In this document: in pieces, positions 1 to 64,000 of the stretch
Layout: each line of letters starts with the position of its first letter
Position numbering within the stretch: position 1 is the stretch's first letter
Source: Candidatus Omnitrophota bacterium
Lineage (GTDB): Bacteria > Omnitrophota > Gorgyraeia > Gygaellales > Profunditerraquicolaceae
Length of the DNA stretch: 64,000 bases
Direction of reading: 5' to 3'
NCBI GenBank assembly: GCA_022710715.1
Contig: JAKLGJ010000002.1
Coordinates: 309,453-373,452 of the forward strand
Position numbers and translations under genes: made by a program
The notes under the pieces: model-generated
Databases searched by the model: none
What the model was told of the DNA's origin: nothing
The model's input: only the letters and a program-made list of their open reading frames with translations

Positions 1-1599
1 CTGCCGGTCCTGGCGGTCGTGCTCGGCGCAGTCAACCTTATTGCTTTGTTCCGGTATGGTCTGTTCGTGACCCACGCTTATACTATCCTGGTGGGTATCT
101 TCATCGCTTCCCGCGTGATCCCGGGTATGTTCTTCTACCGCATGCCGAAAGACAACGGGATCATGCCGACCATCTCGATGGTCATCCCTGCGTATAATGA
201 AGAAGAGTCCGCCGCCGAAACCATCGACCGGGCGCTGGCCACCGGGTATCCCATGGATAAAGTGGAAGTGATCGCGATCAACGACGGCTCCCAGGACAAA
301 ACCCTTGAGGCGATGCAGGAAGCCGCCGCGCGGCATCCTGCTAACGTCAGAGTGATCGATTTTAAGCAGAATCGCGGAAAAAGAGAAGGTTTGTATGCCG
401 GCGTCATGGCTGCCGGCGGAAATATTATTGTGGTGGTGGATTCCGATTCGTACCTGCAGCCGGGCAGTTTGTATCAGATCGTGCAGCCGTTCGCCGATCC
501 GGCGATACACGCGGTTTCCGGGCACACCGATGTGCATAACGCGGATACGAACCTGCTCACGCGCATGCAGCAGGTCTGGTACGACGTGATGTTCCGCGTC
601 TTCAAGGCGGGGGAGAGCGTGTTCGGCCTGGTTTCCTGCTGCCCGGGGTGTTTCTCCGCCTATCGCAGGGAAGCGTTGCTTAACGTGCTGGAGGATTTCC
701 GCAACCAGCAGTTTGCCGGCACGCGCTGCACCTACGGCGACGACCGCAGCTTGACCAATATGATCCTGCGCAATAACGGTAAAGTCATCTACCACAGCGG
801 CGCCCGGGCCACCACCATCGTCCCCGATAAATTCAACGTGTACCTGCGGCAGCAACTCCGCTGGAAACGTTCCTGGATCCGCGAATCGCTGACCGTGGCC
901 AGCCGGTTCATGTGGCGCAAGAACCCGGTGATCGGCTGGACGTTCTATATCGCCATCCTGGTGGCTTTTATCTCGCCGCTGGTGGTATTCTATCATGTAA
1001 TCTGGATGTCTATGATGTGCGGCGTTTCTATCTGGCTGTATGTGCTGGGCGTGACCATGGTGCCGGTAACCTGCTCGCTGTATTATCTTATCCGCCACCG
1101 GCACGATCCGCGGGGCAATAATTTCATTCACGGCTTGATGGCGATGTACCTGTACCTGGCGGTGCTGGGATCGCTTAATTACTACGCGTTCTCGACTCTG
1201 GTCAATACCACCTGGGGTACCCGCGCCGTGCAGGATGCCAAACCGTCGCTGCTGGGCTCGTTCAAAAAACGCCTGGCTGACCGGCGCGCGGCCCGGCTGT
1301 CCTCCGGCGCAGGCAGAACCGCGCATCCGGTACTCTCCAATGTAGTGATGTCCGGGTTTCTCATCGCTCCGGTGCTGGCTGCGGCGTTCTTTATTTTCCA
1401 GCATCCCGCAGCGATCCTGGGAGCGGACGTTTTGAACGCGGCGCAGTTCTTCGCTTTCACCAATACGTCCATTTCGGTTATCCTGCAAGTTTTCCTTCCG
1501 GCGATCGCGGCATTCATCGGCGCCTACTGGCTGGGTATTATCGGCGCCGTGATTTTTGTGGCCGGAATGTATTATATCTGGAAACGCGTTTCGCAGTAT
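1..1599 (+). other. Domain: GT2 processive beta-glycosyltransferase (hyaluronan synthase/NodC/chitin-synthase type) with flanking TM helices
   Basis: GT-A core begins at about 160 with IMPTISMVIPAYNEE. DGSQDKT, VVVDSDS, YGDDRSLTNM and the QQLRW motif (about 851-865) are the D,D,D,QxxRW signature of processive synthases. Hydrophobic helices lie before it (1-150) and after it (900-1600). Confidence 0.8.
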
Positions 1600-4500
1600 C
1601 AGGGTGCAGGTGAAACCGGCTTTATGAAGATGCTTGAGCAGCGAACCGAGGGATTGGACGGCGCTTTGAAAAAGCGAATTGCGGTGCTGGCTGCCGGGAA
1701 GCTGCGCTCGATCCTGACGCAGGATCAGGCTTTGACTTTGTCCCCGGGCAAGCTTGCCGCCCGTTTGCCGGTCATCGGCGCTCTGGTAGAGCGGTATGGC
1801 GAAACCCGGATCGGGACTGTAGCGGGCAAGCCGTTAGCCTGGGTATTCGATATCCTGACCATGATGATCGTCTACCGGTTCTTCCTGAAGCATTTCCTGC
1901 TTCCCATGGGCCTTGCCGCCGAGGCCGGCGCATCCGCGTTGCCGCAGGAATTGGCGTTGAGGATCATCGATGAGAGCATTGCCGAAGCGCAGTCCAGGCA
2001 GACCGGCAGGATCGTGAAGCGCGCCGCGTCCGCGGCAATCCGAACGATCACTTTACGCGGTATCGCCGATAAGCTCGATTACAAAGTGCTCGCAGCGGGT
2101 GCCGACCACGCCCGGCGACAGAGCTTCCTGATGAATGGGATAGATGCTGCGCGCCTGGGTTTTTGGGTGACGATCAGCGGGACTTTGTCGCTTTTGACCC
2201 AGAGGGTGATCATCGCGGTAATCGCTTTGCGCATTGCCCCGTTTATCCTGGGCATGGCTTTGCCGGCCGCGATCCTTCAGATCGCGCTTTTCTCCATTCC
2301 TCTGCCCGGGACGGCTGCGTATCTTGTTACCGCCGGGTCGGTACTCAACAGTATGCTGGTTGTCCTGGCCCTTGACATGTCGCGCCTGTATCAGCACGCC
2401 CGGGACGCGTGGCAGCGTAAGATACGGCTTACCCGGGCCCTGGGATTGGCAGCGGTCATGCTTGCCGCAGACACCATTTCCATGGAACTGGTCGGGCCGG
2501 AGATCGCGATTGCGCTCTGGCTGACTGCCGGCATTCCGGTGCTCGGAGACCTGATGCGGCTCATCGAAGAGGTGATTTACGGGGCTAACGGGAAGAGAGG
2601 CATCGGCGCGGCGATCGTGGAAACCGCAGAAGTTGTCATTGGCAGAGCGCCGGCGGCATTCGTTGTCGGCAATTCGGAAGCCTGGGGATGGAATGTGCCC
2701 GCGCAAGGGTGGACTGTCGACTCCAACGGGAAAGGCGTGTATCCTTCTGCGGAAAATTCCTTGAAAGTCGCTGCGGCCGGCATCGGCAATTCCGATTTCG
2801 CGACCGTGGAGCCGGGCAAGCAGTATGTGCTGGAATTTCTCGCCGATGTCCAATCCCTGCCGGACGGCCGGGTGAATGTCGCCATCCAGGAATATAATAT
2901 CGATAATCGCGGCGCCGCATTGATCAATACTGTCGATTACGGCGCCTATACCGCAACAGGTATCGACTACGTCACCAGTCGGTATGCGCCTACCAGCGAA
3001 AATGTCAACGCCGTCTCGATCCAGATCCGCGCGGACACGATCCAACCCGGGGTGCTGGCTTACTTCGACGGCATCCGGCTCTCGGAAATCAAGGAAAGCG
3101 AAGCATTGCGGCAGCTGCAGCAGCCGCACGTGGTGCTGCGTTTCGACGACGGGTGGAGAAATGACGCCATCTGGCAGGACGATTCGCTGCACTATCCTTT
3201 TGTCACCAACGTCATTCCCGAAGCAATAGGTTTTTCGGATAACGAAGACAGCGCCGTCTCGAAGATGTATGTTTCCCAGCCCAACATCCTGCGGTTGAAA
3301 ACGGAATTCGGCGCGCAGATCGGCGCGCATTCCGCGGCGGACGATATCGTGAACCTCTCGCTGCAGGACAAGTTCGTAGAGACCGCAGGGAGCAAGAATC
3401 GGCTGAATGCTCTGGGGTTGAGAACGGATACCTACGCCTCTCCGAGATTCCTGTACAACAACGAAACATTGAGGTTCATCTACCGCAATTACAACTCGCA
3501 TCAGCTCGGCGAGACCAACAAACTGGCAAGCAGCACCTTCCCCTTTAACCGCTATAAATTCTATGTTGCCGTTGAGCCGAAGGAGCTGGGCAGCACGTCG
3601 GAAGCGGCTACGCGCTCCACCGCTGCCGTGCTCGACCAGGCGATTGCCGCCAACGCCACGGCTACCGTGCTTTTCCATAAAGTGAATGCGGATAACGACG
3701 CGTACATCTCATCCGCGACGGAAATATCCCGGGAAACGTACGAAGGGATACTGATCCATATCAAGGATAACGAGAAAAGGATTACGCCGGTGACCTACGA
3801 TCAGCTTCTGGCCTGGCAGGAAGAAGCGCTGGAGCCGGTGGGATTGAACGCGGATTTCAATGCTCAATCCTGGGGAGCGACCAGCCGGTTGATCCCGTTC
3901 TCGCAGCGTGACCATATGCCCGGCCAGGCCGCGGTCAATCTGGGTCAGGAATCCCTGGCGGCTATACGCGCGATCGAGCCGAACAATGCCCAAACGTTAT
4001 TCGGGCTGCCGGCGCCGTTGATCAAATCCCCCGTACGTCTGCCTGTCGCCGGCGGCGCGTTGAAACAGGAAATATATGTTTCCTATCCGCACGCGGACCT
4101 GGGGCTGGGCACGATCCCCGGCGGCCTGGGCGGCACCAGAGCGTACGTTATCGACGAAACCGGGAATTTCTATCGCACCAGCGATATGGGAACGGATTCC
4201 AGCACTCCTCTGGTCTATTCCGGCGAAGATACGTTTGCCGATGAGACCGTCTATAAACTCGACTTGGCGATTACCCGGCCCGGGACGTATTACGTGGTGC
4301 TGCAGACACCGTCAGGTCTTTTGTTGAAGTCGCACGCCTTCGGCGTAGCGGAGGATCCGTTCAGCGATATCGGCGCAGCGATGGTTCAATCCTATCAAAA
4401 CACGAATACCGCAAATCATCCGGAGGTCTCGCGCACTGTGCGCGTGGTCGATGTCAATGATACCCTGATCCGGGTCATACCCGGGATGCCGGATACGATG

Positions 4501-7500
4501 ATGCCGGAAGGAAACGTATTCGCTACCACCGGCTATCTGGCGACTATGTACAATACCTGGGATGTGTTTCTGGAGAAGGATTCGCCTCTTGCCATCAATG
4601 AAAGAGAGCCGATGGAGCAGCTCCTGATGAATCAGGCGCCCTGGATGCTGGCCATGCAGGTGCCGGACGGGAATTTCACCGGTTCCGTTTACCAGGATGA
4701 GGGGGATATCAAGCGATTTATGGGTATTAAATATGACTTTTCCAAGAATCAGCGGGTGGTGCGCGATTTGCGCGACGATCATTACTCTACGGCAGTGACC
4801 GGTCAATATGCCGCGGCGATGAGCAGCGCGGCAGATATCTACGCGCAGCATGGCAACAGCCAGATGGCGGTCGAGTGCACCAAAGCGTCTTTACGCGCCT
4901 GGCAATTCCTGCAGACCCATCCTAACTTCTCCCGGTTCAAGGTCGGCGGGCCGTGGGACGGCGTGGATGTGGATGAACGCGTGCTTACTGCCACCCGACT
5001 GCTGGAAATTTCCTATAATTACCCGGATATTTACGCGCAGGCTCAAGCCGAAACCGGAATTTCTACCGCAACGCCCCGGGACCTGGCCTGGTACATCACC
5101 GTGTATACGCCGCAGTTACGGCCGTGGCTGACCTTTGAAGGCGACCGCCATGACGCCATGGCGTACTGCCATATCGCGTTGTTGCCCGATGGGCTGGTGG
5201 AAAGAACCGGGTTGACTGCCACCCGCGACCTGGCGCAAAAGAAACTGGTGTATTCGTTGGGCGACGAAATTCTCAACCTGGCGGAAAGCCATCCCATGCA
5301 TCAAGGCGTAATGAATGACGAGCACGACGCCTGGGCCTGGGGTTCGACCAGGAACAAGATGGATAAGGCCCGCTGGCTGCTGGTGGTTGACGAGATCTCG
5401 GCGCGTCGGGATAAGGAAGAATACGATGGCCGGTATTTGCGCGCGGCTTATGACATCTGGAGTTCGGTGGTCGAGGCGAGGAATATCTACAGTCGGTCTT
5501 TTATGATCGGTTATTCCGACCGTTCGCCCAGGCAGCCGCACGATGTATTCCATTACAGCGGGTACGTTTCGCTGGATGCGCTTAATGGCAGGATCGTCAA
5601 CGGGCCTTCCAAGTTGCGCGATGATCCGACGATACCCGGTTTATACGAAGTGTACCAGGATATGCCCGATGACGTAAAGATATGGTATGTCAACGAGCCG
5701 ACTTTCCAGGAAAGTTACAGCGCCACCATTTTTGCCAACGCGATCATGCCGGCTCTGGCAACGCGCCAGTTGCTTCCTCCGGGCGTGCAGCTCAATGTTT
5801 CTTCACCTGCGGCCGACACCGCTGTCTTCACGGCCACGCCGGACTCGATCCCTGCCAATGAAGTGGTCACGCTTAGAGCCGCGGACGCGTATAAGGTTTT
5901 ACAATCGATAGTCGGCCCGTACAATCAGAAGTTCGAGTTTCAGGACGATATGCGGCCTGTCGACCCCGGGGGAAATCCTGTGGATCAGCAATTCCAGGTT
6001 GGTTTGGAAAATCTCGATCCTTTCCTGGGATGGGTCCCGGGAGACGTATTGCCGAGCAGACGCATCGTGGAAAGAGCGATACGCAACGCAGACGGCACCT
6101 GGACGGTGCGGGTTCAAGGCAACGATGTTTACAGTCAATTACCCGCGCCTGCGGATTCTCCGGAAGAACGCGCCGCCCGGCGCATTCACGGTAATTTTAT
6201 CGCAGCCGTGCTGTCCCCGAAAGGATACCGGCAGTCCGGAGCCGGTTCCGCCACGCAGATCTGGTATCCGCCGTCCAATCGCCCCGATCTGAAAACGATC
6301 GAGATCATCTATAAAGATGATCTCGACGGAGGCAAGGACAAAGAAATTCGCGGCCCGCCGCAGGCGCCGATGGTTTTGAGCGCCGGACTGACGGCAGTAA
6401 CCGCCGCGTTACTTTCCCCAGGCGAAATCCTGTCGCAATGGGTTGCCCGCCAGCGGGCGCGTAACCGCAAGATCGTCGTAGTCCAGGGGCTTGGTTTTGT
6501 CGGCCAGGCCATGGCTTCAGTGATCGCCACTGCCGACCGCGGACAGGAGTACGCGGTGATCGGAGTGGACCTGCCTTTCAACCAGTCCAAGATCGACTTG
6601 ATCAACCAGGGAATTTCTCCGATCAAAGCCGCAGATCCCAAAGTGGAAAGTTATTTGCGCAGGGCCGTAGTGGAAAGAGATTCGTTGATCGCAACTACAT
6701 CCGCCGAAGCCTACAAGTTCGCCGATATCATCGTGGTGGATGTGCCTTTCGAAGCGAGCAAGCCGGCGATGAGCGCAGTGCTGGATATCGTAATGCGCGA
6801 GAACGATCCTGACAAATGGCTGGAAACGTCCACTATGGATCAGGTGGTCGATCTGTACAGTAAAGAAGGCACGATGTCCCTGAAGGTGTTTACCAGCGCC
6901 ATAGAAGATGTGGCGGCTCATATGAAGGAAGACGCGCTGGTGATCATCGAGACTACCGTCCCGCCCGGCGCCACGGATCTGATCGCCATGCCCATATTCA
7001 ACCGGGTCCGCGCCCAGCGGGGATTCCGCGAACCGGTGGTGGTGGCGCATTCCTATGAGCGGGTCATGCCCGGTCCGGATTATCTGGATTCCATCGCCAA
7101 CTACCCGCGTCAGGTTTCCGGCGTGAACATAGAAAGTCTTCTTAAGGCAACAGCATTTTTCAAGACCATCATCGACACCGAAAAATATCCGCTCAACGCC
7201 CTGGCCAGCCCTACCGAGACCGAGTACGCCAAGATCATCGAAAATACCTACCGCAGTATTCTTATCGCCATGACCCATGATTTCGACCTGCTGGCCGAGC
7301 ATATGGAAGTCAATTACTGGGATGTGCGCGACGGCATCCGGGTGCGGCCGACGCACAATAACATGCTTGCGCCTACATTAGGCGTGGGTGGTTACTGTCT
7401 GCCCAAGGACGCATTGCTGGCTTTGTACGCGGCTAACGAATTCTTCAATATGAGCCCGGATAAAACCGTTTTGATCCTGCGTTCGATCGTGATCAACGAT

Positions 7501-10500
7501 CTGCGCGCTTTACGCTCGGTGCAAATGGCTTTGCAGGGACTCGCCCGGCAGCAGAAGAGGATCGAGGAGGCGCACGTTGCAATTATGGGCGTTTCCTATA
7601 AATCCGGGGTGGATGATACCCGCTATTCTCCGACGGAGACAGCGGCCCGGGCTTTCTTGAAGCTGGGGGCTCAAGTTACGGTGCATGATCCTTATGTTGA
7701 AAGATGGCAGGAGATGGAGCGGGATAGAACGCTGGCCGTGAATTTCCTTAACCATAACGATATGTATTCCGCGTCGCAGGATGCGGATGTGGTTATCTTT
7801 GCCGTGGACCACCCGGAATACAAAAACTTCAATTTTGATTCCTTTACCGACGCCAGGAATAACCGCAAAGCAGTGTTGATCGACGCTTATAACGTGATCA
7901 ACGATGACACTATCCTCAATTTGCTTAGAATGGGCCATGCGGTTTATGGTTACGGCAAAGGGCATATCAAGCGGCTTGAACGTCAGGTTCAGGAGATGCA
8001 GGAGTTGACGGCTGCTCAAAACGGAGAAAGCGCGGATAAGGATCTGGACGGCGGACAAAGCGTTGCGCTTGCGCGCGATGCGGGACCGGTAATCGCCCGG
8101 ATACTGGCGCAGGAAGGAACGGTAGACCTGGCGTGCGCGTCGGGTGAAGTATTTACGCTCGATTACGCCGCGCAGGGAACAACGTATGTCAAGCACCGGC
8201 TGGTCATCTCGCAGGGGGATAGAGTCCGGGGGTATTCTGACGTCGAAGCGGATGTCCAGGTCGGTTGCTACGCAGTTATGGGATGCGGATTCGATCCCAA
8301 GCCTTTTTATGCCGGGAACTGGAAAGAGCTGGCCTGGAAGGAGAGCCGTCATTACGCTTTGCAGTCCCATAGAACAACTTCTCTAGGCTGCTATTCAGGT
8401 ATTGGCCGGACCCTGATGAGCGCGATGCTCTCTCTCATGCGGGATGCGGGAGTGAAAACATTCTTTATCCGGGAGGTTGACCGCAAGGCCGTAGGTTTCT
8501 ACGACGCTCTGGGCTTCGCGGAGTATAAAGATACGATCTATGCCGGCAACGGCGCATCGCTGGGTTACGAGCTCGATCTGGAACGCATCGTGTATCCTTC
8601 TCCGGGCATCGATTTCGTCCCCCTGAAACAGCCGGTTGCGTATCGCATCTCTCCGGCAGCAACCGCGTCGGACGGCGGCGCGGTTACCGAAACTGAAGTG
8701 CTGGAGCAATTGACCGTTCCGCAGACCGGCTGGGAATTGGCGCAAAGCCTGAAGATAAACTCGATCCCGGACGCAGCCCGGTTGTTCAGGATTTGTGCCG
8801 GCAGCCAGGGAATAACCAGCAGGTTCGCCGGGAAGCTCTATGTGCGTATCGCGCAAAAGGAAAACCGGCAGCATACCTTGTCGCCGGCGCTGCTGCGCAG
8901 TTTCCTGGATTACACGGTTATCGCGCGCAGGCAGGATGCGCGCCTTAGGGAAGCGGCTGGCGCCTTGCGCGCTGCCCAGGCTCAAGCCAGCGCCGCTAAG
9001 CTGGGTCTGGCCAGATTTGAGATGACCGATGCCTGGAAGGATATGAATATGTGTCCGGGGATCGCTTTCCTGATCAACGGGGATACCTCCATGGGCATGA
9101 CCAATACGCATAAACGCGAAGAGCTTTTTTCCGGTGAGCTGTTCAACGGATCGGATCTCGACGTGCTCGTGCTTGTCAATGAGCGGCAGAATCCGTTCGT
9201 TGTCGATACGCTGATGCAGAATTTGGAAAACCGTAAGCAGAATCTATTCACCTTCTGGCACGAATCCCTGGATTATACCCTGTATACCCGCAGAGCCTTT
9301 CTTGCCGCAATGGAATCGTTCGATCGCCAGACTGCGGTGAGTATGAGCCAGTTTGCTAAAGCCAGGTTCCTGTGCGGTGACCAGGCGCTGGCTACGGAAG
9401 CGTTCCATGCGCTGGCCCACAGCCGCTGGCAGCGTTATTTCAAAGAGGCTTCTGACGCAGCAAAGCATTCGCGCGCTGCGCTCGTCGCCGCGATGCTGCA
9501 GATACCGGTCGAGGAGTGGAGCAAAGAAATGGTCCGGCAGTTCATGGGGCCGGGCGAGCAATACTGGGAGCTGGAAAGTGCTCACTTCTTCCCGGACGCG
9601 TTCGATGCGGACGGAGGCAGGAATATCGCCGCCGCTTTCTTCGATCTGCGCAAGACCATGCATTCGTATATGTACTTCCCGGGCAAGGAAAAAGATATGC
9701 GGCCGCTGGACCGGAACTGGATCGTCGCATCGCTCGCGGGTGTGGGGGTATTCTATCTGATCGCCGCCTGGTCCAAAGGGCCGCTGGTCATCCTGGGTTC
9801 CTGGGCTGCCTGGCATATCGCGATATTCCTCCGTTCGTATCTGGTCGACCAGTTGCATTATAACCGCAGGCACTGGCGCAAGTGGAGCATGGCGGATTTC
9901 CGCTATCCAAAATTTGCCGGAGCGTTGAGCATGTCCCTGAACAAGATGCTGATCCTGAACGTGTTTGACCTGCTGGTGCTCGGCGCGCTGCTGTTGTTTT
10001 TTCCCGGGGTTTATTTCGGGATTCCCGGTAAATATGTGGCTCTGGCAATCCGCACTGCGATCACGCTGGTATTAAGTTCGTACGTTACCTGGGCGCAGAA
10101 AGGGTTTAATTTCACGCGCAGCGCGGCGCAGGAAGAGGTGATCAAGAATATCGGGTTAAGCCTGTTCTCCACCGCAGTCGGCGCGCTGTACCTTAACGCC
10201 AGCCCCATGGCGTTCGTGGCCCTCTATTCAATCGTGTACAAAGTATTCAGCGAAGCCATCGGAGCCTGGATCGATTACCGCCGTCCCAAACCGCCGCATT
10301 TGTTCCTGCGGCCGGGTGATTATGCCGATATGCCCGCTGAAATCACCGTTCAAGGGCAGCAGCTTTATCCGATGAAGATCATTCGTCAGGTGGAGCGGAT
10401 GGTTAACCGCGATACGCAGCGGATGGAACTGCGCTATGGAATAAACGTCACCGAACCGGCTACTGCGGATAAGCTGATCGTTCCCATGTCCCGGTCCCTG

Positions 10501-52500: not shown

Positions 52501-55500
52501 CTGGAGGGTTTTGTAAAAGGGAGCTTGAGGAAATGGCAGAGGCTGTTCTACCGCGACCGGGTAATGACCTATTCCGCTCACCGGGGCCGGAATCCGGGGC
52601 AGCAATGGCGGCAAGTGAAAAAAGAAATCGATTGGCCGCAGGCTTCCGCGGTGTTATCGCGGCAGTTCGACAGCGCTTTGCTGCAATCTGGCTTATGGGA
52701 CTGGCAATTGCAGAAATCGGGCATGCCAGATGGCGGCATTCTCGATCAGCCGGTTTCTTTTCAAGAGTATCTCACCCCGGCATTAATCGTAACGCCTAAA
52801 TCCATTCCGGAACCGCGGCAGCGTTGCAGCGAAATTAACGCCGCCGCCAAAGCATTCTTTGCTGCAACCGGCAGGGGCGTTGCAGGAAAGTACGCGCGCC
52901 GGGAAAAGGTGAATATCGGCTGGTGCGAGGACGGAGCGACCAGGCTTGTTTTCGCCGAAGACGTTTCCGGCAGGGTGGTCGGCGCCGTGGTGATGATGCT
53001 CGGAGAGATGTACACTCTGTCGGTTGATCCGGCGTGGCGCGACAACGGGCTGGGTGAAGTCCTGTTGCGCGAGACCCTTATTCGCAATAAAGCGGCCGGA
53101 TACGACTATCTTAAGCTTGAAAGCACTTTTCTTGCGCTCAATTTCTATGCGAAATGCAATCAACGGATCCGGAGCATAACGGGCATACCCATTGAAGCCG
53201 GGTTGGCCGCAGACGGAAACATTGCGTATCGTTATGACCTGCAATCCGTCCCTGCCTCCGCATTGCTCGCGTTGCGGAATTATTCCCCGCGTATATCGCG
53301 CAGAGACAAGCTCGCTTACGCGCGCGCGTATCTGGACAGCCGGTCATGGCATGACGGAGGCATGGCGAGAAAAGAGGTGCGGCTTACTCTGGAGAGCGAT
53401 GAAGACTTTGAGAATATTCCCCATATCAATGCGTATGTGGCGACCATTAATATCGTTCGGGGATTGAAGACCACGGATGAACCGTTTATCGCCGGCAGGC
53501 TCTTTTTCGGGGAGTCCATCGCGGATTTCCTGCGCAGGATAAACAGGTTAGAAGGCGGCAACGCCTTGATTATCGGCGCAGGCGCAGGCATTATCGTAAA
53601 AGATATCAGAGACGCTTTCCCGCGCGTACGACTGTCTTTCATCAACAAAGAGCTTATCGCGCTGCCGATCGGTACGCTCTGGCACAAGCTGAATCTCAAG
53701 GGCGCTGCCTACGAGCAGCGGCTGCAGGAAGCGCGCGAGTTCGTACGATACTTTCACCGCACTGTCATCTATCACGATGTTGAGCACGGATTGCCGTTCT
53801 CTGACCGGACGTTCGATTGCGTCATCGTGCCCGATGCGGTTGACGAGTATATTGTGCATAAAGCAGAGCTTATCCGGGATGTTAAACGGGTATTGAAACC
53901 CGCCGGCGCGGCGTTCTTCAGCGATCTGGCCAAGTTCAACGTTTTCGGTTTTTATGCCGACGGGTTCTTTGAGCAGTTGAACAGAGCCGGACCCGTAGAA
54001 TACCGTTATCTTGCTTCCAGATCCTCTCCAGATCGCGGAACGCTCAAGATCAACAATATCCTGGCGCACAAGCCATTTCCCGGACTGTTCCTTATTCGAT
54101 CCGAAGAAATAAAACACCCTGAATTGCCATCCTCTTACGCGTCGTATTACCGATGGAATTCCAACGCCGAAAACGATAAATACTCTGACGGTGGTAAGAA
54201 TCCGCTGGTTGCTATTCTCATTAAGCTTCTGTCATTTAACCGCGGCAATCAGGAGCTCTCCGCTTGGGTGCGCGGGGCCGCGGCGATAATCCTGGGCAAG
54301 ATCGGAGATCCCCGGGGCATTGAGGCGCTGCTCGTGGTCTTCAGAGACGATTCGCGGCAGGAGCATGAACGGCTTATCGCTGCCCGGGGCTTGAATGAAT
54401 ATTTGAAGCGCGTATTCGGGGAAGCAGACGGCGGTAAGACAGTATTGTTGCGCAAAGGCATTATCGATACCAAAGCAGATCCGGAAGTCTTTACTCCGCT
54501 CGAGGGTTGGGAAGAAAAGAATTACGATCGCTTGGCCGAATACGTCAAGGCGATGTGGAGCCTCCCGGAATTGCGCCTGTACGATCATCGAGGGCAAAGG
54601 ATCTTTTATAATTATATTGACCGGTTGCTCTATGCGGGACACGAGATGTATAAGCCCGAACGGGAAGATCTCAAGCCCGGCGTATTCAAGGAAGTCGAGC
54701 TCAACGATAACGCCATAGCCATATTCGGCGATTTTGTCACAGCTCATCTGCTCACCCAGTGGCTGGAAGAAAGAGACGACGGTCCTCAACCGGACAGAGA
54801 GGAATTCATCACCTGGGTTTGCCGCAGGTTCAATCTGCAGGCGATCGGCGACCAGGCGGATATCCCGCAGGGATACTTCCTGCTGACGCGACAGCCCGTG
54901 GACTGGCCAGAGCCGTCGGACAAAGAAGTCCAAACCGCTGTTGACCCGCTGGATCAGGCCAGGCAGCTTTTGCTCGAATTCTCTTATCCGCTGCCGGAGA
55001 TTTCATTGTGGGGCAATCTGCCGAAATGGCGGGATTTTGTTTTCCCGGATGAGGAAGGACGGCTCTGGAAAGTGCGTTCCTGGAATACCCTGCCCAGGTT
55101 CTGGGTGCGGGGAGAAGTGCCGCAGTTCTTGCGTTTTGCCATCGAGGAATCCGGCCGGGAGAGAGTGCTTTTCGACCAGGAACAGGCAGCAGCCTATGAA
55201 CAAATACGCGAGGCCAGCCTGTCGAGGAACGGCTTGATCCTGGCGGAGATCAAAAATACCGGATTCGAGGCGTTGCGCCTGGATCCCCTGGAGACCATCG
55301 TCAGCATCCCGCGCAACCGCTTGCTTGCCGGCGCATGGGTGGTGGCCGGAGATGACCGGGAAGGCGCTCGCGCCTTCTATAAAGACGGGGATCTGCTCAT
55401 CTATGCCCGCGCCGGCAGCGAGCAGTTTATCACGCGGGCGGAGGATCTCAACAGGGTTCCGGAGATCTATGCGCAGCAGAAAGAGAACGAGCGCGCGTCT

Positions 55501-58500
55501 TTTGCGGCGCAAGGAGGCGGGTTTTTCCGTTATTTCCTGATGCAGCTGCCTGAAGAGCCGCGCAGGGCTCTGGCGATTAATGAAGAAGTGTTCGAGCTGC
55601 CCGGCGCGCAGGAAGCGTTGTATGCTCTGCTGGAGTTGAAAAATATCGCGTCGGTGTATCTCTTCGGTTCTGCCGCCCGGCACTGGAAAGAACATTTCGG
55701 AGACCATCGCCTGAAGATCGCGGATTCTCTGGATGATATCCGGCAGGAAAACGCTCAAGAGCCCGCGACGATTGCCATGCCGGCAGAGCGTGCAGAGCTG
55801 TTGTCTGCATTTGCCGACGCCCTGGCGCAGGTATATGGTGATGGCGAACGCCAGCAGGCGGTTCTGGACTATTTCAAAAACGCGCTGGCCTGCGCCGGCC
55901 GTTCGGCAGGCCGGTCTGACGGCGGAAGGCTTTATTTCTTCGACAACCGCATCGCGATAGAACCCGCAGCCGCCGATTTCCTGGAACGCACCCGGGGCCA
56001 CTACCGGATTTTCACTGCCTGCAGCGGCGCTGCCTGCGGGGAGACGGGGATCGGTAAGATTCGCCGTTATGGCTCGCGTAGCCCCAAGCGCAGCGATCAG
56101 CTTATCGAAATCGGCGGCGGCAAGATCTACGTGAGCGCGCATCAGCTCGATTTCGTGCTGCGCTACTTCGGGTCCATCGAGGTCTATTATGACCCGGATC
56201 AGGATGATCTGTCCATCCGTCCAGACGGAGGGCAAACAACCACCATCCGTTTCGATAAAAAGCTGGCCTACGTCGTCGTCCCGGATTACGAAGCATTGAG
56301 CGAAACGGTAACCGGGATAGTCCGCAATCTTATCCGCGAGAAACCCGATGCTGTACTCCTGGTGCCGGGATGCAATACGCCTATGGGATTCTATCGGAAA
56401 CTGGCGGTTTGTGTGCGTACGGGAGAAGTGGATATTTCGAATGTGCGGTTCGTGACCCTTGACGCGCCTATCGGCCTGGAGCTGATCGATTCCCGAAACT
56501 TCCGGATGTACATGTATAATTACTTTTACCGATTCATCTTCGGGGATATTCCGCAGGGGGCGGACAAAGAACAATTCCTGAAAAGTTTCTACAAGGAGCA
56601 TCCCAATCTCGTCGTAGCCTACGTCCCGCCCGACGCTTCCGATGCAGAGTCGGGGCGGATTGCCGGAGAATTCGGCGATACGCTTGCGCGTATGGGATAT
56701 GCCGATATGGCTTTCCTTGGATTGGGGCTGGCCAGGGAAAGAGCCGACGGTAGATTGATCGGAGGGCATATCGCTTTTAACGAGCCCGGCACTCCGCTTG
56801 AATCTCAAGCCAGGATCGTCGATCTGACCGAGCACAGCATAAGCACTAAATTCGTCAGTTGCAACGTATCTTTGTGGGACAAAGAAGATATGAATCGCGG
56901 CCCGCCGCAGCGGGCGATCACCGTGGGTGTTCAGGACATTCTGCGTTCCAGGATCATTCTCATCGCTGCTTCAGGCAAGAATAAAGCCCGGGAGGTGCAA
57001 TACCTCCTGGAAGGAGAGATAACCGACGATTTTCCCGCCACGTATCTTCATACCGTAAAAGATAAAACACTGTTAATTGTGGATAAAGAAGCTGCCGCTT
57101 TGCTTGATGATCGTGCCGAGCCGGTTGACGGAGGCAAGGATGAAGTTCTGGGCTGGGGGTGCTGCCTCGAGCCGGGCAGCCTTACCGCGCTGGTGAGGGA
57201 AGAGTATCCGCATAGTTTTATCAGCGGTTTATGCGCGCAGGGCGCGTGTATTTCCTGGAAAAGTCTGCGGGGTGCGACCAAAGAAATTCTTGAAAAGAAC
57301 CAGGGGCTCTATGACCGGATACGCACGGGCAGCATCAAACCGGTTATCGTCCATAATGAGGCTACGGGAAGAGACGGCGTTCCGATCATCTCGATAGATA
57401 AGAATACCGGGCATTTCATCATTGCCGCGCGGCATCGGGGAAGATTGTACGTATCCCTGGCGCTGCTGAAGCTTTTGATCGAAAAGGACCGTAGAGACGA
57501 AATAGAGCTGTTGTTGAATTGGGCCGACATGCCGATGGCGCAGCAGGATGCGCAGGGGGAGAAATCCTGGGAACGCTTCTGCGCCCTGGCGCTGCGCGAA
57601 TGGGCCATGGAGACCGTAAAGAAATGGTATATTCCTACCGAAGAACGGTTATTCGCGGTCAAATGCATACAATTGCTCCAGTCGGCGGATTACCTTACCC
57701 GCAGCACGGAAATGTCCGGCCGGGTCGATATGCACATTCATTCGGTCTATTCGGACGGATTCTTCACTCCTGCCCATCTGGTGGTGGAATACTGGCTGAA
57801 AGGCTGGTCAGTGATGTCCATCACCGACCACGACACGTTTGAAAGTCAGCCCGAAGCTATCGCGGCAGCCGAGATCCTGGGAGGGATACAATATGTTCCC
57901 GGCATCGAAATGACCATCTATACTCCCGAACATCTGGTGGAGAGCGTACATCTGCTCGGCTACTGGAGAAAGAATAACCGGGCATTCCTGCAATGGCTGG
58001 AGCGGGCCAGAGAACACGGATGGCTGGAGGGCATCGAGACCAATCGCCGTGAATCGAAAAGAATCACCGCCGCCATACTTGCTGATTTCAACCGGCGGCA
58101 GCCGAAATTGGCGGTTACCGATGACGACATTCGCAGGGTATTCCCCCGCGGAGAATTGTTCAATAAGAACGATATAGCCACGGTGCTTTATGTAACGCAC
58201 GGCCCGCCGGGAAGAGGAGCGGTCAAGGAAAAGGATATCAACGGTTTCAAGATCGGCTGTCTGACCAACCTCCCGGCATACTGCGACAAGACAAAATGCG
58301 CTTTCACTTTCGATGAAGCCATGGCTTTTTGTCTCGACCACGGATTCCTTCCCGTTTTCGCTCATCCTTTAAGGAGAGAAGGGTGGAATATGATCAAGGT
58401 TAAGAATGCGCTGGCCCAATACAGCCGCATCGACCGTAAGGGTAAACTGTGGCCGGGTTTCCGCGCGGTGGAATGCGTGCACAGCGGAGAGAGCGAAGCG

Positions 58501-61500
58501 AACATGCGCAAGCTTTTTGCCACGGTCGACCACTTCAACCGCAACTATTACTGGGCTTGTCCGCTGGCCGTGACCGTGGGCACGGATACGCACCGGGATT
58601 GGGACAAATGCTTCGGGATACATTGTCCTTCCTATACGCGCGAGGGGTTGTTCGCGATGAGGAAAGGCCTGCTTGCCGGTATATTATTGCCGATGCAAAA
58701 AAGGGTAAATTTCTTCGCCGACGTCCTGTTCTACTGGATACGGCTTACGGTTTTCGAGAAGCTGATGAGTCCCGTCAGCCTTGTCTGGAGTCCGGATAAT
58801 GCCCTGCTGGGCACGGAAAATGAATATCAGCGGATGGTTACGGTAGCCCCTCTGGTGATCAAGGAATTGGGCAGACGCATGCGCAGCGACCGGCGCAACG
58901 ATTTTCTGTACGGTTTTCTGGCCCAGGCGCTGATCACTCACAACGACATTCCGGAAACGTACAAAGCCGGAATCAAGGCGTTTGTCTCGGACATGTTCGA
59001 CCTGTCCCGCATCCAGGCGCAGGAGCGTTTCGTCACCGCCTGTCTTCTGGACAGGCATCTGTCGTCACCTTCCGGCTTCACTGAAACTCTTCTGCTCCAG
59101 GCGAAAGCGGCATATTTGGGGGCATGGGGAATTACGGCTGAAGAGCTGCCCGGCGTCCTGGAAAGCGCGGTAGAGAGCCGGTACCTGGAAAGGGACCGGC
59201 TGTTGCGGCCGGGATACCTGCGCAACGACCGTCAGGCAGAAGAGACGGTGTATTTGCTGGATAAGAGCTTTTGTGTGCTTTCGAACGAGAATACGCTTCT
59301 GGAGAGAGTCCGTGATGTCAATCCGGAAACGCGCATTGCGGTGCTCAAAACGTTGATCGATCAATTCTCGCTGCCCGGAGAGCGGACCCTGGCATTGCTG
59401 GCCGAGTTGCTGGTTAAGGATCCCGATGCCTATGTCCGTCGTCTCGCCGCCCAGACCCTGGGCAAGATCGGCGACCGCAGGCATCTGGCCGCGTTGAATC
59501 AGGCGGCGGTCATCGACACGGATAAGACCGTGCGCAGCGATGCGGCAACCGCGGCGGCAGCCGTCCAGAACGGCCAGAAAGGCCTGGACAAGATAAACGG
59601 CAGAATCAAGAGGGCCAGGAACAGCTCATCGAGCGCGCCGGACGGCGGCAGATTGTCCGATAGCGAAGCCCGGCAAACGATCGAACGACTTATAAAAGAA
59701 TTCCAGGAATTCGTCAACATCGTCAATGCCGATCTTGCTAAAATCGCCCCGGCGCTTAAAAATCGGACTCTTACGCTGCCGGAGGAAGCAGCATTCACTA
59801 TCGATGAAACAACCACGATGCAGGGATTAACCGAAGATTTCTGGCGGGTATACGCAGATAGCTATAACCGGCAGCTCATCGATTGGCACAGGGCGTTGAG
59901 CGAAAGCTCGGTACCGATAACCATCAACAGCGCGTACGAAGAATTCCTTAAAAATGAGTTTTTGCCGGACAACGCGGGGATAGCGGTTACGGCGCTGGAC
60001 GTCGGGACCGGGCCGGGAACCGTTGCTGCGTTGTTACTCAAAGCAGGCGTCCGCAATGTTATAGGGGTAGATATTTCGCCGGAAATGCTCCAAACGGCAG
60101 CCGCAAACACCGGATTTGCCGGGTCAAGAACCGATTTTATCGCTGCCAATGCGGTAAACCTGCCTTTGATGGATCATGCGGTTGATGCGGTATATTCGGC
60201 CTGGACGTTAAAATATCTACCGGATGTTTTACGTGTTCAGGCGCTTGAAGAGTTTTACCGTGTCCTGAAGGTTGGCGGCAGCATGCATCTCTTGAGCTTG
60301 CAGGAAATGGTGAATGAAACGTCCGCGCTCGGCACTCGGTGGAAGCCGACAACCGAGTGGCCGATGGACAAATATCGATCTATCCTTGAAAGGATCGGCT
60401 TCTCCGGGATCGCAATGGAAGATGTTGCCAATTGCCGCGTCGTGCTTGCGGCAAAAACAGCCGTGAGCGCCGACGGCGGAGCGCGCAGGTATTATAAAGA
60501 GTTTTTCGGGAAATATCCGCAGTTGAAGATGCTCAAAGCGATTGTCGCGGATGCAGACGATTCGATAATGCTCAAAGGTAAGCCGCTGGATGCGCCGATG
60601 AGCGCAGTCATCCATCAACTGCGCGTGGACAAGGGAATGCAATTCGCCCTGGTCACCGGCGATAGTTACGATCATATGCTCGACCGGTACGTCGCCGCGC
60701 TTTCCGCCCCGGCCAAAGCGGATCAGCTTTTGATCGTGGAGAACGGCGGCAGGATATTCAGATTCGATACTGCGGGAGCGCTCGATCCGGCGCCCGCGCA
60801 GGCATTCCCGGTTTTTGACCGGGAAGAGGACGTGCTGGCTCTTGTCGGCGCCATAGAATCGGCGGTAAGGAGCGTGTTCGAGGCTAACGGCGTAGATCCC
60901 GATCAGACCAATGTCTGGCCTATCCGGCGCAGGCCAGCCGACCGTCCCGACGAACTGAACATATCGATGCGGGATGCGTTGCCTCTACGGGAGCAGGTAG
61001 CCGGCGAGGTGCGCGCGCGCCTGGCGCTGGACCCGATCAGGTTCAAAGGGGTCAAAGTCTTCGTGTCTTCCGCTGCCGTGGAAGTGTCCCGCCAGGATAA
61101 GGGCGATGCGATGAATCATATTGTAGAGACGCTGGGTATCAAGCCTTCAGCCATACTTCTGTTGGTGGACAGCGAAATAGATGATCCGATGATGCTCGCT
61201 TTTAAGGATAGCGTGAAGCTCTGGCTCGGGCCGGAACCGTATGCCGGAAAAGCCGAAAATGTGATCAACGCGCGCATTCCCGGCCCCGCCGGCGCGCAGG
61301 AATTCCTGGACCTGCTGCTCGACGAGGAATTCCTCGCGCAGTCGTCTCTTCTGTGGGAAGGCAGGATTCCGTGGGTGGGCGATTTTGCGGTTGCGCCGGT
61401 CGGCTGCCCGTGCTGCGGCAGGCGCGACTATGATGTTTTGAGCAGGATCCGGGTCAACGGTCAGGAGCTGGAGATAGTCAAGTGCCGGGATGACGGATGC

Positions 61501-64000: not shown

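Follow-up and report, generated by a model that had tools for sequence, protein, structure and literature searches.

The 64,000-nucleotide window analysed here (the whole stretch from contig JAKLGJ010000002.1 of a Candidatus Omnitrophota bacterium, assembly GCA_022710715.1) is an internal 64-kb piece of one giant multi-enzyme gene of the Omnitrophota type, and its single reading frame is punctuated by the tripeptide Asp–Gly–Gly (DGG). This punctuation is the most informative feature of the open reading frame (ORF) and was absent from the initial annotation of the sequence. From its distribution, DGG would be the recognition site of a site-specific endopeptidase and the gene product a polyprotein, a reading to which we assign a probability of about 0.5.

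The initial annotation had described the window as one stop-free ORF, belonging to a giant gene of more than 21,000 codons truncated at both ends, and had predicted that translation of frame 1 would give no stops. The count confirmed this: none of the 21,333 codons of frame +1 (nt 1–63,999) is TAA, TAG or TGA, where a base-composition model predicts about 859 stops (ln P(0 stops) = −876), and the remaining five frames contain 208–993 stops each. The figure of 21,333 amino acids (aa) is a minimum length, since the ORF runs past both ends of the window. The GC content at third codon positions (GC3) is 0.60–0.75 in all 4-kb blocks and 0.58–0.75 in the modules, high and even when compared with a second-position value (GC2) of about 0.40, which indicates a coding signature that is continuous along the window. 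GC3 and codon usage, whose uniformity the annotation had proposed as a check, are thus uniform throughout. The amino-acid composition of the encoded protein is ordinary, and Pfam/NCBIfam domains, which make up about 39% of the chain, are recognised from aa 10 to aa 20,690. No sign of buried gene starts was found, the share of Shine-Dalgarno-preceded start codons being 1.3% in frame 1, the same as in the control frames, and a scan of the window for Rfam families, tRNAs and tandem nucleotide repeats detected none.

Off-frame and opposite-strand ORFs of up to 610 aa are also present, including three on the minus strand (55003–56835, 610 aa; 2053–3678, 541 aa; 46528–47808, 426 aa), where one frame is interrupted by just 208 stops over the 64 kb. 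None of these ORFs matches a Pfam protein family; they were rejected as genes for this reason and are regarded as shadows of the high-GC3 sense frame. The GC skew is positive in each 2-kb bin of the window and the cumulative skew climbs monotonically to 2.24. This is consistent with a gene on the leading strand, as in the reported Omnitrophota genomes with almost fully co-oriented replichores.

DGG occurs 35 times in the window protein, compared with 6.4 occurrences expected, and is its most enriched tripeptide; in shuffled sequence the mean is 6.3 (standard deviation 2.6, maximum 14). The motif is strict. The Gly–Gly dipeptide is not enriched overall (100 observed versus 107 expected), EGG, NGG and DGS are not overrepresented, and DGA is underrepresented (3 observed versus 9 expected). 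None of the 35 DGG sites falls inside an annotated domain, with domains covering 39% of the chain (binomial P = 3e-8), and 32 of the 65 remaining Gly–Gly dipeptides do. The sites are found 1–30 aa beyond the limits of full-length domain matches, and their flanks are hydrophilic, with Q, K, P, E and R enriched. The bounded segments that contain recognised enzymes measure 138 aa (GGACT), 205 aa (GNAT), 256 aa (GDSL), 283 aa (methyltransferase), 298 aa (NagB) and 668 and 665 aa (the two GlgA units), that is, they are of natural protein size. Twelve further DGG-bounded segments, of 99–707 aa, carry no annotation.

The nucleotide sequence behind the motif is not constant. The 35 sites are encoded by 11 different 9-mers, and the preference for GAC and GGC at these codons equals the background for any D-before-G or x-G-G context. 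The degenerate sequence GAYGGNGG has 35 occurrences in frame 1; the counts for the remaining forward frames are 0 and 4, and those for the reverse-strand frames are 1, 4 and 1. A DNA or RNA signal, or a remnant of Shine-Dalgarno sequences, was therefore rejected as an explanation: the codons vary, their biases are those of the background, and beyond these few counts the motif is absent off-frame and antisense. The DGG signal is selected in the protein and not in the nucleic acid.

The closest proteins in the databases are either ORFs truncated by contig ends or complete large multi-module genes. The closest named homologue, P0002 (MDD5130916.1, 3,156 aa, 43% identical), comes from Candidatus Omnitrophota, in agreement with the relation to the giant genes of this phylum that had been proposed initially; P0001 (2,764 aa), like P0002 a fragment derived from a metagenome-assembled genome at NCBI, is labelled only “bacterium”. 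P0002 is the one close homologue that carries a taxon label, and the window itself contains no marker genes. Free-standing relatives of 1.6–4.6 kaa (P0005–P0012) are colinear with window aa 10,271–13,439 at 33–54% identity, among them P0005, a complete gene of 4,005 aa colinear with aa 10,271–13,438 at 40–48% identity. In addition, a 5.3-kb metagenome contig (L004), found in a profile search with the HIT-like unit described below, is colinear with aa 12,215–13,358. Several module junctions of the window are thus spanned by independent assemblies, which argues against a chimeric join. When the first 500 aa of the window were compared with genome contigs, only ordinary homologues of family-2 glycosyltransferases (GT2) appeared, in one Thermoleophilaceae and one Moraniibacteriota genome, and a scan of viral contigs gave nothing.

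The natural ends of some of these free-standing proteins coincide with DGG sites. P0009 (2,040 aa) begins with a Met that aligns 6 residues past DGG-10255, and the N-terminus of P0014, a single HIT-like protein of 348 aa, maps 11 residues past DGG-11443. The homology of P0010 (1,708 aa) stops at the residue that precedes DGG-13440, 11 residues short of the C-terminus of P0010. By chance, three termini would come within 15 aa of a DGG site with a probability of about 1e-4. Moreover, in P0008 the synteny with the window is broken exactly at DGG-10255, and the family-4 glycosyltransferase (GT4) module is relocated.

The same punctuation was found in a second gene, P0026, a complete 4,815-aa gene at positions 10001–24448 of L005, a 42-kb ENA contig with 51% GC, which is 25–43% identical to four window segments. 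P0026 contains 22 DGG against 1.85 expected, a 12-fold enrichment that makes it the most enriched tripeptide of this protein as well; all 22 instances of GAYGGNGG are in frame, as 10 different 9-mers, and 0 of the 22 sites fall inside Pfam domains. In all four homologous segments (4/4), DGG occupies the same alignment column at the edge in both proteins, although the residues around it differ, and the segments are ordered differently in P0026 and in the window. Conservation of DGG together with a changed segment order indicates that the DGG-bounded modules are shuffled units whose delimiter is kept by selection. A complete CDF cation-efflux transporter (P0026 aa 3405–3589) has DGG sites on both sides, 13 and 19 aa away from its ends, and a CheR methyltransferase is also a DGG-bounded module; the architecture is therefore confined neither to sugar metabolism nor to proteins above 10 kaa.

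On the polyprotein reading, the gene would be equivalent to an operon and would be translated as one membrane-anchored polyprotein. The cut could be made after Gly–Gly by a clan-CA/C39-type peptidase, of the kind reported at the N-termini of giants, or after Asp; cleavage after Asp would leave Gly–Gly N-termini and fits the data equally well. Processing at either bond would free or unhinge enzymes of ordinary size (77–2,000 aa) on the cytoplasmic face, and the DGG-free aa 1–2108 (synthase, deacetylase-like region and GH9) would stay together as one intact membrane machine, an arrangement that would be sensible if parts of it were extracytoplasmic and the protease cytoplasmic. Gly–Gly at P2–P1 is a hallmark of clan-CA peptidases, which include the C39 bacteriocin-processing enzymes, the deubiquitinases and the coronavirus PLpro, and this feature of C39 substrates is present at the 35 inter-module DGG sites. 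That an exact tripeptide exceeds the needs of a hinge, and that P0005 joins modules without DGG, speaks for a protease site. The wider proposal, in which a subset of the Omnitrophota-type giant genes would be true cellular polyproteins, with the enzymes of an entire pathway made as a single chain and cut at D-G-G into ordinary proteins, including small membrane proteins and transporters, is offered more tentatively, as something we hold to be possible at somewhat less than even odds.

Several observations weigh against cleavage at DGG. Family searches found no significant peptidase domain in the window, the only candidate being a sub-threshold hint, and no C39 domain was found in the window or in P0026. 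The residue that follows Gly–Gly is Lys or Arg at 17 of the 57 sites of the window and P0026. N-terminal Lys or Arg is destabilising in bacteria that possess the Leu/Phe-transferase branch of the N-end rule. The classical double-glycine leader (LSxxELxxIxGG) is amphipathic with conserved hydrophobic positions. At the 57 sites, no conserved pattern was found at residues −1 to −10 before the Asp, and the residue immediately before it is L, P, Q or S and not consistently hydrophobic; DGG as a leader of this classical type was rejected, given the lack of an upstream consensus. Furthermore, the punctuation is not universal: relatives other than P0026 have 8 DGG against 11.4 expected in 41,938 aa, P0001 and P0002 show no excess, and no tripeptide is comparably enriched as an alternative delimiter in these DGG-less relatives. 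The C-terminal tails of the relatives vary, with the ends of P0012 and L004 mapping 30–76 aa upstream of DGG-13440, and some module boundaries of the window, such as those between the second HIT-like unit and the radical SAM module or between the UDP-glucose 6-dehydrogenase (UGDH) and GFO modules, have no DGG.

The peptidase hint mentioned above, a weak match to the Tiki/TraB/ChaN superfamily, sits in a DGG-bounded segment of 262 aa with the motifs “IIIGESH...E...ILVGAGH”; PDB sequence comparison gave no support for it. The region of the match (aa 17126–17265) is a possible candidate for an in-chain metalloprotease. The N-termini of P0008 and P0023 look similar by eye.

An alternative is that the product is an uncleaved, membrane-tethered chain of enzymes, comparable to AROM, CAD or the fusions of polyketide synthase and non-ribosomal peptide synthetase type, with DGG as a hinge or turn that aids folding or flexibility. 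We consider this less likely than cleavage, although it is the strongest of the competing explanations: the flanks of DGG are linker-like, the window has no significant peptidase, the classical leader is missing, and published topology surveys describe these giants as single membrane-anchored chains. However, a generic linker would need no exact tripeptide, and close variants of DGG, including DGA, are without excess. Nor would a hinge account for the conservation of DGG while its flanks diverge or for its coincidence with natural protein termini, and P0005, which joins the same modules without any DGG in its 4,005 aa, suggests that folding does not need it. DGG could also be the neutral scar of module fusion or shuffling, left for instance by recombination at a short shared sequence and with no present function in the protein. 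The sites do match synteny breakpoints and the edges of shuffled modules, and GAC-GGC-GGN is the commonest coding form in both the window protein and P0026; a recombinase of these genomes that recognised a GACGGCGG-like core would favour this explanation. It is nevertheless improbable, as synonymous positions vary in both genes with codon preferences at background, the DNA motif is missing outside the coding frame on either strand, and a neutral tripeptide would not have been kept unchanged in proteins whose identity around it is only 25–43%.

The remaining possibility, that the stop-free frame is an artefact of a chimeric or mis-joined assembly or of genes concatenated without their stops, appears very remote. 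A stretch of 138 nt that is 99% identical in two tandem copies is a spot where an assembler could gain or lose a copy, but the 1,065-nt tandem unit is divisible by three and a copy-number error would keep the frame. Codon statistics are uniform over all modules without residual start or Shine-Dalgarno signals, colinearity extends across junctions in four independent assemblies, the unrelated ENA assembly carries the same DGG punctuation, and complete long-read genomes have confirmed giant ORFs of this kind.

The first 2,108 aa (nt 1–6324), which contain zero DGG, have the order transmembrane (TM) helices, NodC/PgaC-like GT2, about seven more TM helices, deacetylase-like region and GH9-like hydrolase. 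The GT2 domain (aa 10–411) matches TIGR04242 NodC (7e-50) and PgaC (3e-36), both under their equivalog cut-offs, and the deacetylase-like region has a weak match to DUF2334 (E 0.033). This block resembles an exopolysaccharide synthase fused to its modifying enzymes, as in PgaC/PgaB. Position 5 of the NodC model aligns at window aa 10, which places a module boundary right at the window start. In the whole window, a Kyte-Doolittle scan (19-mer means of at least 1.6; not a trained predictor), from which false positives in Rossmann folds and beta-strands were removed, gave 17 strong hydrophobic helices in four clusters. The helix counts of clusters 2–4 are even (2, 4 and 2), which on this crude scan would leave the soluble modules next to these clusters all on the same side of the membrane.

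The window comprises about 36 enzyme and membrane modules, about 35 of them beyond the N-terminal block, from about 30 distinct families with at most 4–5 copies each (Table 1). After aa 2108 these are enzymes of nucleotide-sugar, glycogen, sugar-phosphate and nucleotide metabolism, methyl- and acetyltransferases, HEAT scaffolds and three small TM-hairpin segments. The two GlgA-like units are internal paralogues (about 40% identical), and a cupin follows the GFO/IDH/MocA oxidoreductase. HEAT is also placed between the methyltransferase that starts at nt 53518 and NagB in the module order, and about 1,300 aa between the HEAT array and TM cluster 3 have no domain matches. Nearly all the identified enzymes use NAD+, ATP, UTP/CTP, S-adenosylmethionine (SAM), ADP- or UDP-sugars, or sugar phosphates. 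It is established biochemistry that NAD+, ATP, UTP/CTP, SAM, nucleoside diphosphate (NDP)-sugars and sugar phosphates occur only in the cytoplasm. This use of cofactors suggests that most modules are cytoplasmic and supply precursors for glycogen and exopolysaccharide metabolism.

The block shared with the free-standing relatives has the conserved order GT4, HIT-like, HIT-like, radical SAM, HIT-like and PEP-synthase-like. The HIT-like unit of the free-standing relatives (1.6–4.6 kaa) invariably belongs to a cassette made up of GT4, HIT, radical SAM, HIT and PEP-synthase-like modules. On its contig (L003), P0005 starts independently, with AGGAGG-N7-ATG. At positions 956–17599 of that contig, a 1,533-aa PPDK_N gene and P0005 lie in the same frame, split only by a stop and this AGGAGG-N7-ATG; the arrangement is the unfused counterpart of the module joints in the window. 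The PEP-synthase-like module aligns with NF005057 at model positions 6–472 of 798, with the C-terminal PEP/pyruvate-binding domain missing. ATP-grasp and swivel phosphohistidine domains without a PEP/pyruvate domain occur in rifampicin phosphotransferase and PigC-type enzymes. The domain content therefore suggests ATP-dependent phosphotransfer or ligation, and not PEP synthesis.

The unit of 355 aa that is present three times in this block has no Pfam match and is rare, with 20 cluster representatives among 1.84 billion proteins. It carries the motifs CxFC, PFFxxHML and HLHIHIY, the last of which, present in units 1 and 2, is a histidine triad (H-phi-H-phi-H-phi-phi, phi being hydrophobic). 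In a 14-sequence alignment, H180 and H182 are invariant and H184 nearly so. An AlphaFold2 model from this alignment (pLDDT 91.3, pTM 0.91), which replaced a discarded 3-sequence model (pLDDT 52), shows a two-lobed HIT fold. The top six Foldseek matches are the yeast Ap4A phosphorylase Apa2 (E 3e-8 to 9e-7, probability 1.00, TM-score 0.45–0.63), followed by classic HIT proteins. Judged from the model, the unit is a divergent member of the HIT superfamily in the Apa2/GalT branch and a predicted nucleotidyl-transferase/phosphorylase. Copies 1 and 2 share a 138-nt core with 99% identity (34141–34278 and 35206–35343) and are 72–78% identical at the DNA level outside it, a pattern that points to gene conversion or to a collapse in the local assembly. 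The tandem period of 1,065 nt corresponds to 355 codons; as a multiple of three, it leaves the frame unchanged whichever cause applies.

Table 1. Features of the 64-kb window in order of position; numbers after “aa” are residues of the frame +1 protein, and each DGG is named by its first residue.
Feature	Position (nt)	Strand	Basis or remark
TM cluster 1	1..2544	+	about 9 helices, aa 3-848, GT2 catalytic domain embedded
NodC/PgaC-like processive family-2 glycosyltransferase, aa 10-411	28..1233	+	PF13641 3e-33, PF03142 4e-20
Deacetylase-like region, aa 889-1308	2665..3924	+	34% identity, 7e-55 (blastp) to the P0002 part bearing PF01522
GH9-like glycoside hydrolase, aa 1321-1913	3961..5739	+	PF00759 1e-18; 40% identity to P0001
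DGG aa 2109	6325..6333	+	first of 35; 46 aa before nucleotide-sugar dehydrogenase 1
Nucleotide-sugar dehydrogenase 1, aa 2157-2635	6469..7905	+	TIGR03026 234 bits, above cut-off 189.8
DGG aa 2683	8047..8055	+
GNAT acetyltransferase (weak)	8398..8538	+	PF13673 E 0.003
DGG aa 2891	8671..8679	+
DGG aa 3204	9610..9618	+
TM cluster 2, aa 3240-3421	9718..10263	+	2 strong helices
DGG aa 3914	11740..11748	+
DGG aa 4230	12688..12696	+	20 aa before HAD
HAD phosphatase, aa 4252-4458	12754..13374	+	PF00702 2e-8
DGG aa 4968	14902..14910	+	aligned with a P0026 DGG
Alpha-amylase-like domain, aa 5443-5655	16327..16965	+	PF00128 1e-6
DGG aa 5804	17410..17418	+	start of GlgA repeat unit 1
GlgA-like glycogen/starch synthase 1, aa 5923-6474	17767..19422	+	TIGR02095 4e-76
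DGG aa 6475	19423..19431	+	exact junction of GlgA units 1/2
GlgA-like glycogen/starch synthase 2, aa 6592-7124	19774..21372	+	NF001899 5e-60
DGG aa 7143	21427..21435	+	19 aa after GlgA-2
Partial GT5 domain	22099..22512	+	PF08323 1e-7
Amylo-alpha-1,6-glucosidase (GDE_C), aa 8086-8474	24256..25422	+	PF06202 2e-89
Alpha-amylase N-terminal part	25480..25818	+	PF00128 6e-13
DGG aa 9043	27127..27135	+	7 aa before UGDH module
UDP-glucose 6-dehydrogenase-like module, aa 9052-9486	27154..28458	+	TIGR03026 398 bits, above cut-off 189.8
GFO/IDH/MocA oxidoreductase	28939..29391	+	PF01408 1e-10
DGG aa 10255	30763..30771	+	P0009 N-terminus 6 aa downstream; P0008 synteny breakpoint
GT4 glycosyltransferase, aa 10271-10679	30811..32037	+	PF00534 7e-27; homology with P0005-P0009 begins here
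HIT/Apa2-like unit 1	33283..34326	+	H-x-H-x-H motif
DGG aa 11443	34327..34335	+	P0014 N-terminus 11 aa downstream
HIT/Apa2-like unit 2 (modelled copy)	34348..35412	+	AlphaFold2 and Foldseek
Radical SAM module	35449..36429	+	PF04055 4e-10
HIT/Apa2-like unit 3	36430..37494	+	third copy of the 355-aa unit
PEP-synthase-like ATP-grasp and swivel domains	37474..38928	+	PF01326 5e-59, PF00391 2e-14
DGG aa 13440	40318..40326	+	P0010 homology ends aa 13439; 7 aa before GDSL
GDSL/SGNH hydrolase	40345..40974	+	PF13472 2e-19
DGG aa 13699	41095..41103	+
Class I SAM methyltransferase	41443..41886	+	PF13489 2e-17
DGG aa 13985	41953..41961	+
GGACT (gamma-glutamyl cyclotransferase-like)	41995..42186	+	PF06094 7e-12
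DGG aa 14126	42376..42384	+
Uridine kinase	42466..42999	+	NF004018 2e-36
CYTH domain	43033..43521	+	PF01928 3e-14
DGG aa 14516	43546..43554	+
CoaD/PPAT-like nucleotidyltransferase	44929..45396	+	TIGR01510 142.6 bits, above cut-off 103.3
DGG aa 15143	45427..45435	+
HEAT-repeat array	45493..46440	+	PF13646 2e-51
DGG aa 15559	46675..46683	+
DGG aa 16070	48208..48216	+	aligned with P0026 DGG-4534
DGG aa 16272	48814..48822	+
DGG aa 16841	50521..50529	+	before TM cluster 3
TM cluster 3, aa 16866-17041	50596..51123	+	4 strong helices
DGG aa 17081	51241..51249	+	after TM cluster 3
Tiki/TraB/ChaN-superfamily hint, weak (putative metalloprotease fold), aa 17126-17265	51376..51795	+	PF04187 E 3.6e-4, PF01963 E 0.057, both sub-threshold
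DGG aa 17346	52036..52044	+
DGG aa 17577	52729..52737	+
GNAT acetyltransferase	52921..53157	+	PF13508 3e-6
DGG aa 17785	53353..53361	+
Methyltransferase	53518..53940	+	PF08241 5e-6
DGG aa 18063	54187..54195	+	aligned with P0026 DGG-1532
DGG aa 18143	54427..54435	+	aligned with P0026 DGG-893
DGG aa 18640	55918..55926	+
DGG aa 18742	56224..56232	+	14 aa before NagB
NagB-like glucosamine-6-phosphate deaminase	56272..57105	+	NF001684 2e-33
DGG aa 19043	57127..57135	+	8 aa after NagB
PHP phosphoesterase	57721..58014	+	PF02811 1e-6
HEAT repeats	59293..59553	+	PF13646 1e-12
DGG aa 19881	59641..59649	+
Methyltransferase (UbiE-like)	59986..60327	+	PF08241 3e-26
DGG aa 20158	60472..60480	+
Methyltransferase	61666..62070	+	PF13489 6e-23; paralogue of the aa 13815 module, 37% internal identity
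DGG aa 20719	62155..62163	+	last of 35
TM cluster 4	62869..63012	+	2 helices

The DGG punctuation bears on the main open question for giant proteins, posed explicitly by West-Roberts et al. 2023, that is, whether they are cut into proteins of ordinary size, for which it supplies concrete candidate cleavage positions. It also gives a principled way to split giants for structure prediction and annotation. If cleavage takes place, a large-scale polyprotein strategy would be known from a cellular organism for the first time, and this would resolve the paradox of NAD-, ATP-, SAM- and NDP-sugar-dependent enzymes that are predicted to be extracellular. The giant ORF of such a polyprotein would be a translational substitute for an operon, and its DGG-bounded modules the units shuffled between genes. 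If the sites are not cleaved, DGG still defines the modular grammar of these genes.

Giant ORFs, 20–440 kb in size, are by now recognised as common in Omnitrophota. ORFs above 20 kb have been reported from the majority of Velamenicoccia genomes (Seymour et al. 2023, PMC10066038). The Archaeovorins combine HEAT, GT5, GT1, methyltransferase, glycosyl-hydrolase and PPDK domains with many TM helices, their type being a 39,678-aa protein of Ca. Velamenicoccus archaeovorus LiM; further criteria are a length of at least 30,000 aa, peptidases, NUDIX, a divergent SecA_DEAD, and C39 or S8 near the N-terminus (West-Roberts et al. 2023, 10.1101/2023.11.21.568195). The “multi-enzyme metabolic cluster” proteins of class 1 reach 147,155 aa, have at least 10 kaa, are TM-anchored, and share the core families PF08323, PF00534, PF04055, PF08241, GNAT, HAD and HEAT (Nielsen & Lui 2026, 10.64898/2026.06.07.730766). 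These sizes agree with the initial placement of the window gene in the size class of metagenomic giant proteins.

By its domain content, the window gene is probably a member of this already-described Archaeovorin/class 1 kind. As in the Archaeovorins, one giant ORF combines clusters of TM helices with HEAT, GT5, GT1/GT4, methyltransferase, glycosyl-hydrolase, GNAT and PPDK/PEP-synthase-like modules, represented in the window by HEAT, three GT5, GT1/GT4, at least four methyltransferases, GH9, GDE, amylase and PPDK_N. SecA_DEAD, a C39 or S8 peptidase and NUDIX were not found in window aa 1–21,333 and may lie beyond it, SecA_DEAD and the peptidase being expected close to the ends of the gene. As in class 1, many Pfam families tile the chain with none dominant, core families are shared, and the chain is TM-anchored. 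The view in the initial annotation that its richness in enzymes sets this gene apart from the Omnitrophota giants was thus mistaken, since both kinds have the same architecture. The Archaeovorins have been published as extracellular degraders of prey walls, whereas the cofactor needs of the window modules point to cytoplasmic enzymes. The class 1 catalogue covers domains and topology only, without a concept of inter-module motif, cleavage or polyprotein, and neither West-Roberts et al. 2023 nor Nielsen & Lui 2026 mentions DGG, polyproteins, double-glycine sites or linkers. In the full-text literature, which did not cover the original V. archaeovorus paper, a DGG cleavage motif was found only in an unrelated C. 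elegans paper, and no Omnitrophota polyprotein was found. Within this coverage, the DGG-delimited, polyprotein-like organisation appears to be undescribed.

One comparison is with the free-standing P0005–P0012 block, which is a gene of its own without DGG, whereas in the window the block is embedded in frame and bracketed by DGG. Processing sites with Gly–Gly are found in polyproteins and precursors of other systems, namely LxGG for the coronavirus PLpro, RGG in polyubiquitin precursors and the leaders cut by the C39 double-glycine peptidases. The window resembles these in having many units per frame, a short motif ending in Gly–Gly and units of ordinary protein size, and it differs in that the motif is D-G-G with no conserved upstream leader and that cleavage is here a prediction. 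A scale of at least 35 sites in one cellular gene is not known to have a bacterial precedent. Among bacterial proteins, the MARTX toxins are cut after Leu inside host cells by a cysteine protease domain (CPD) activated by inositol hexakisphosphate (InsP6). The window protein has no CPD, is more than four times longer and carries housekeeping-type metabolic modules instead of toxins; under the polyprotein reading, it would share with MARTX the design of a large bacterial chain of independent modules whose inter-domain linkers are cut, in MARTX by a protease within the chain itself.

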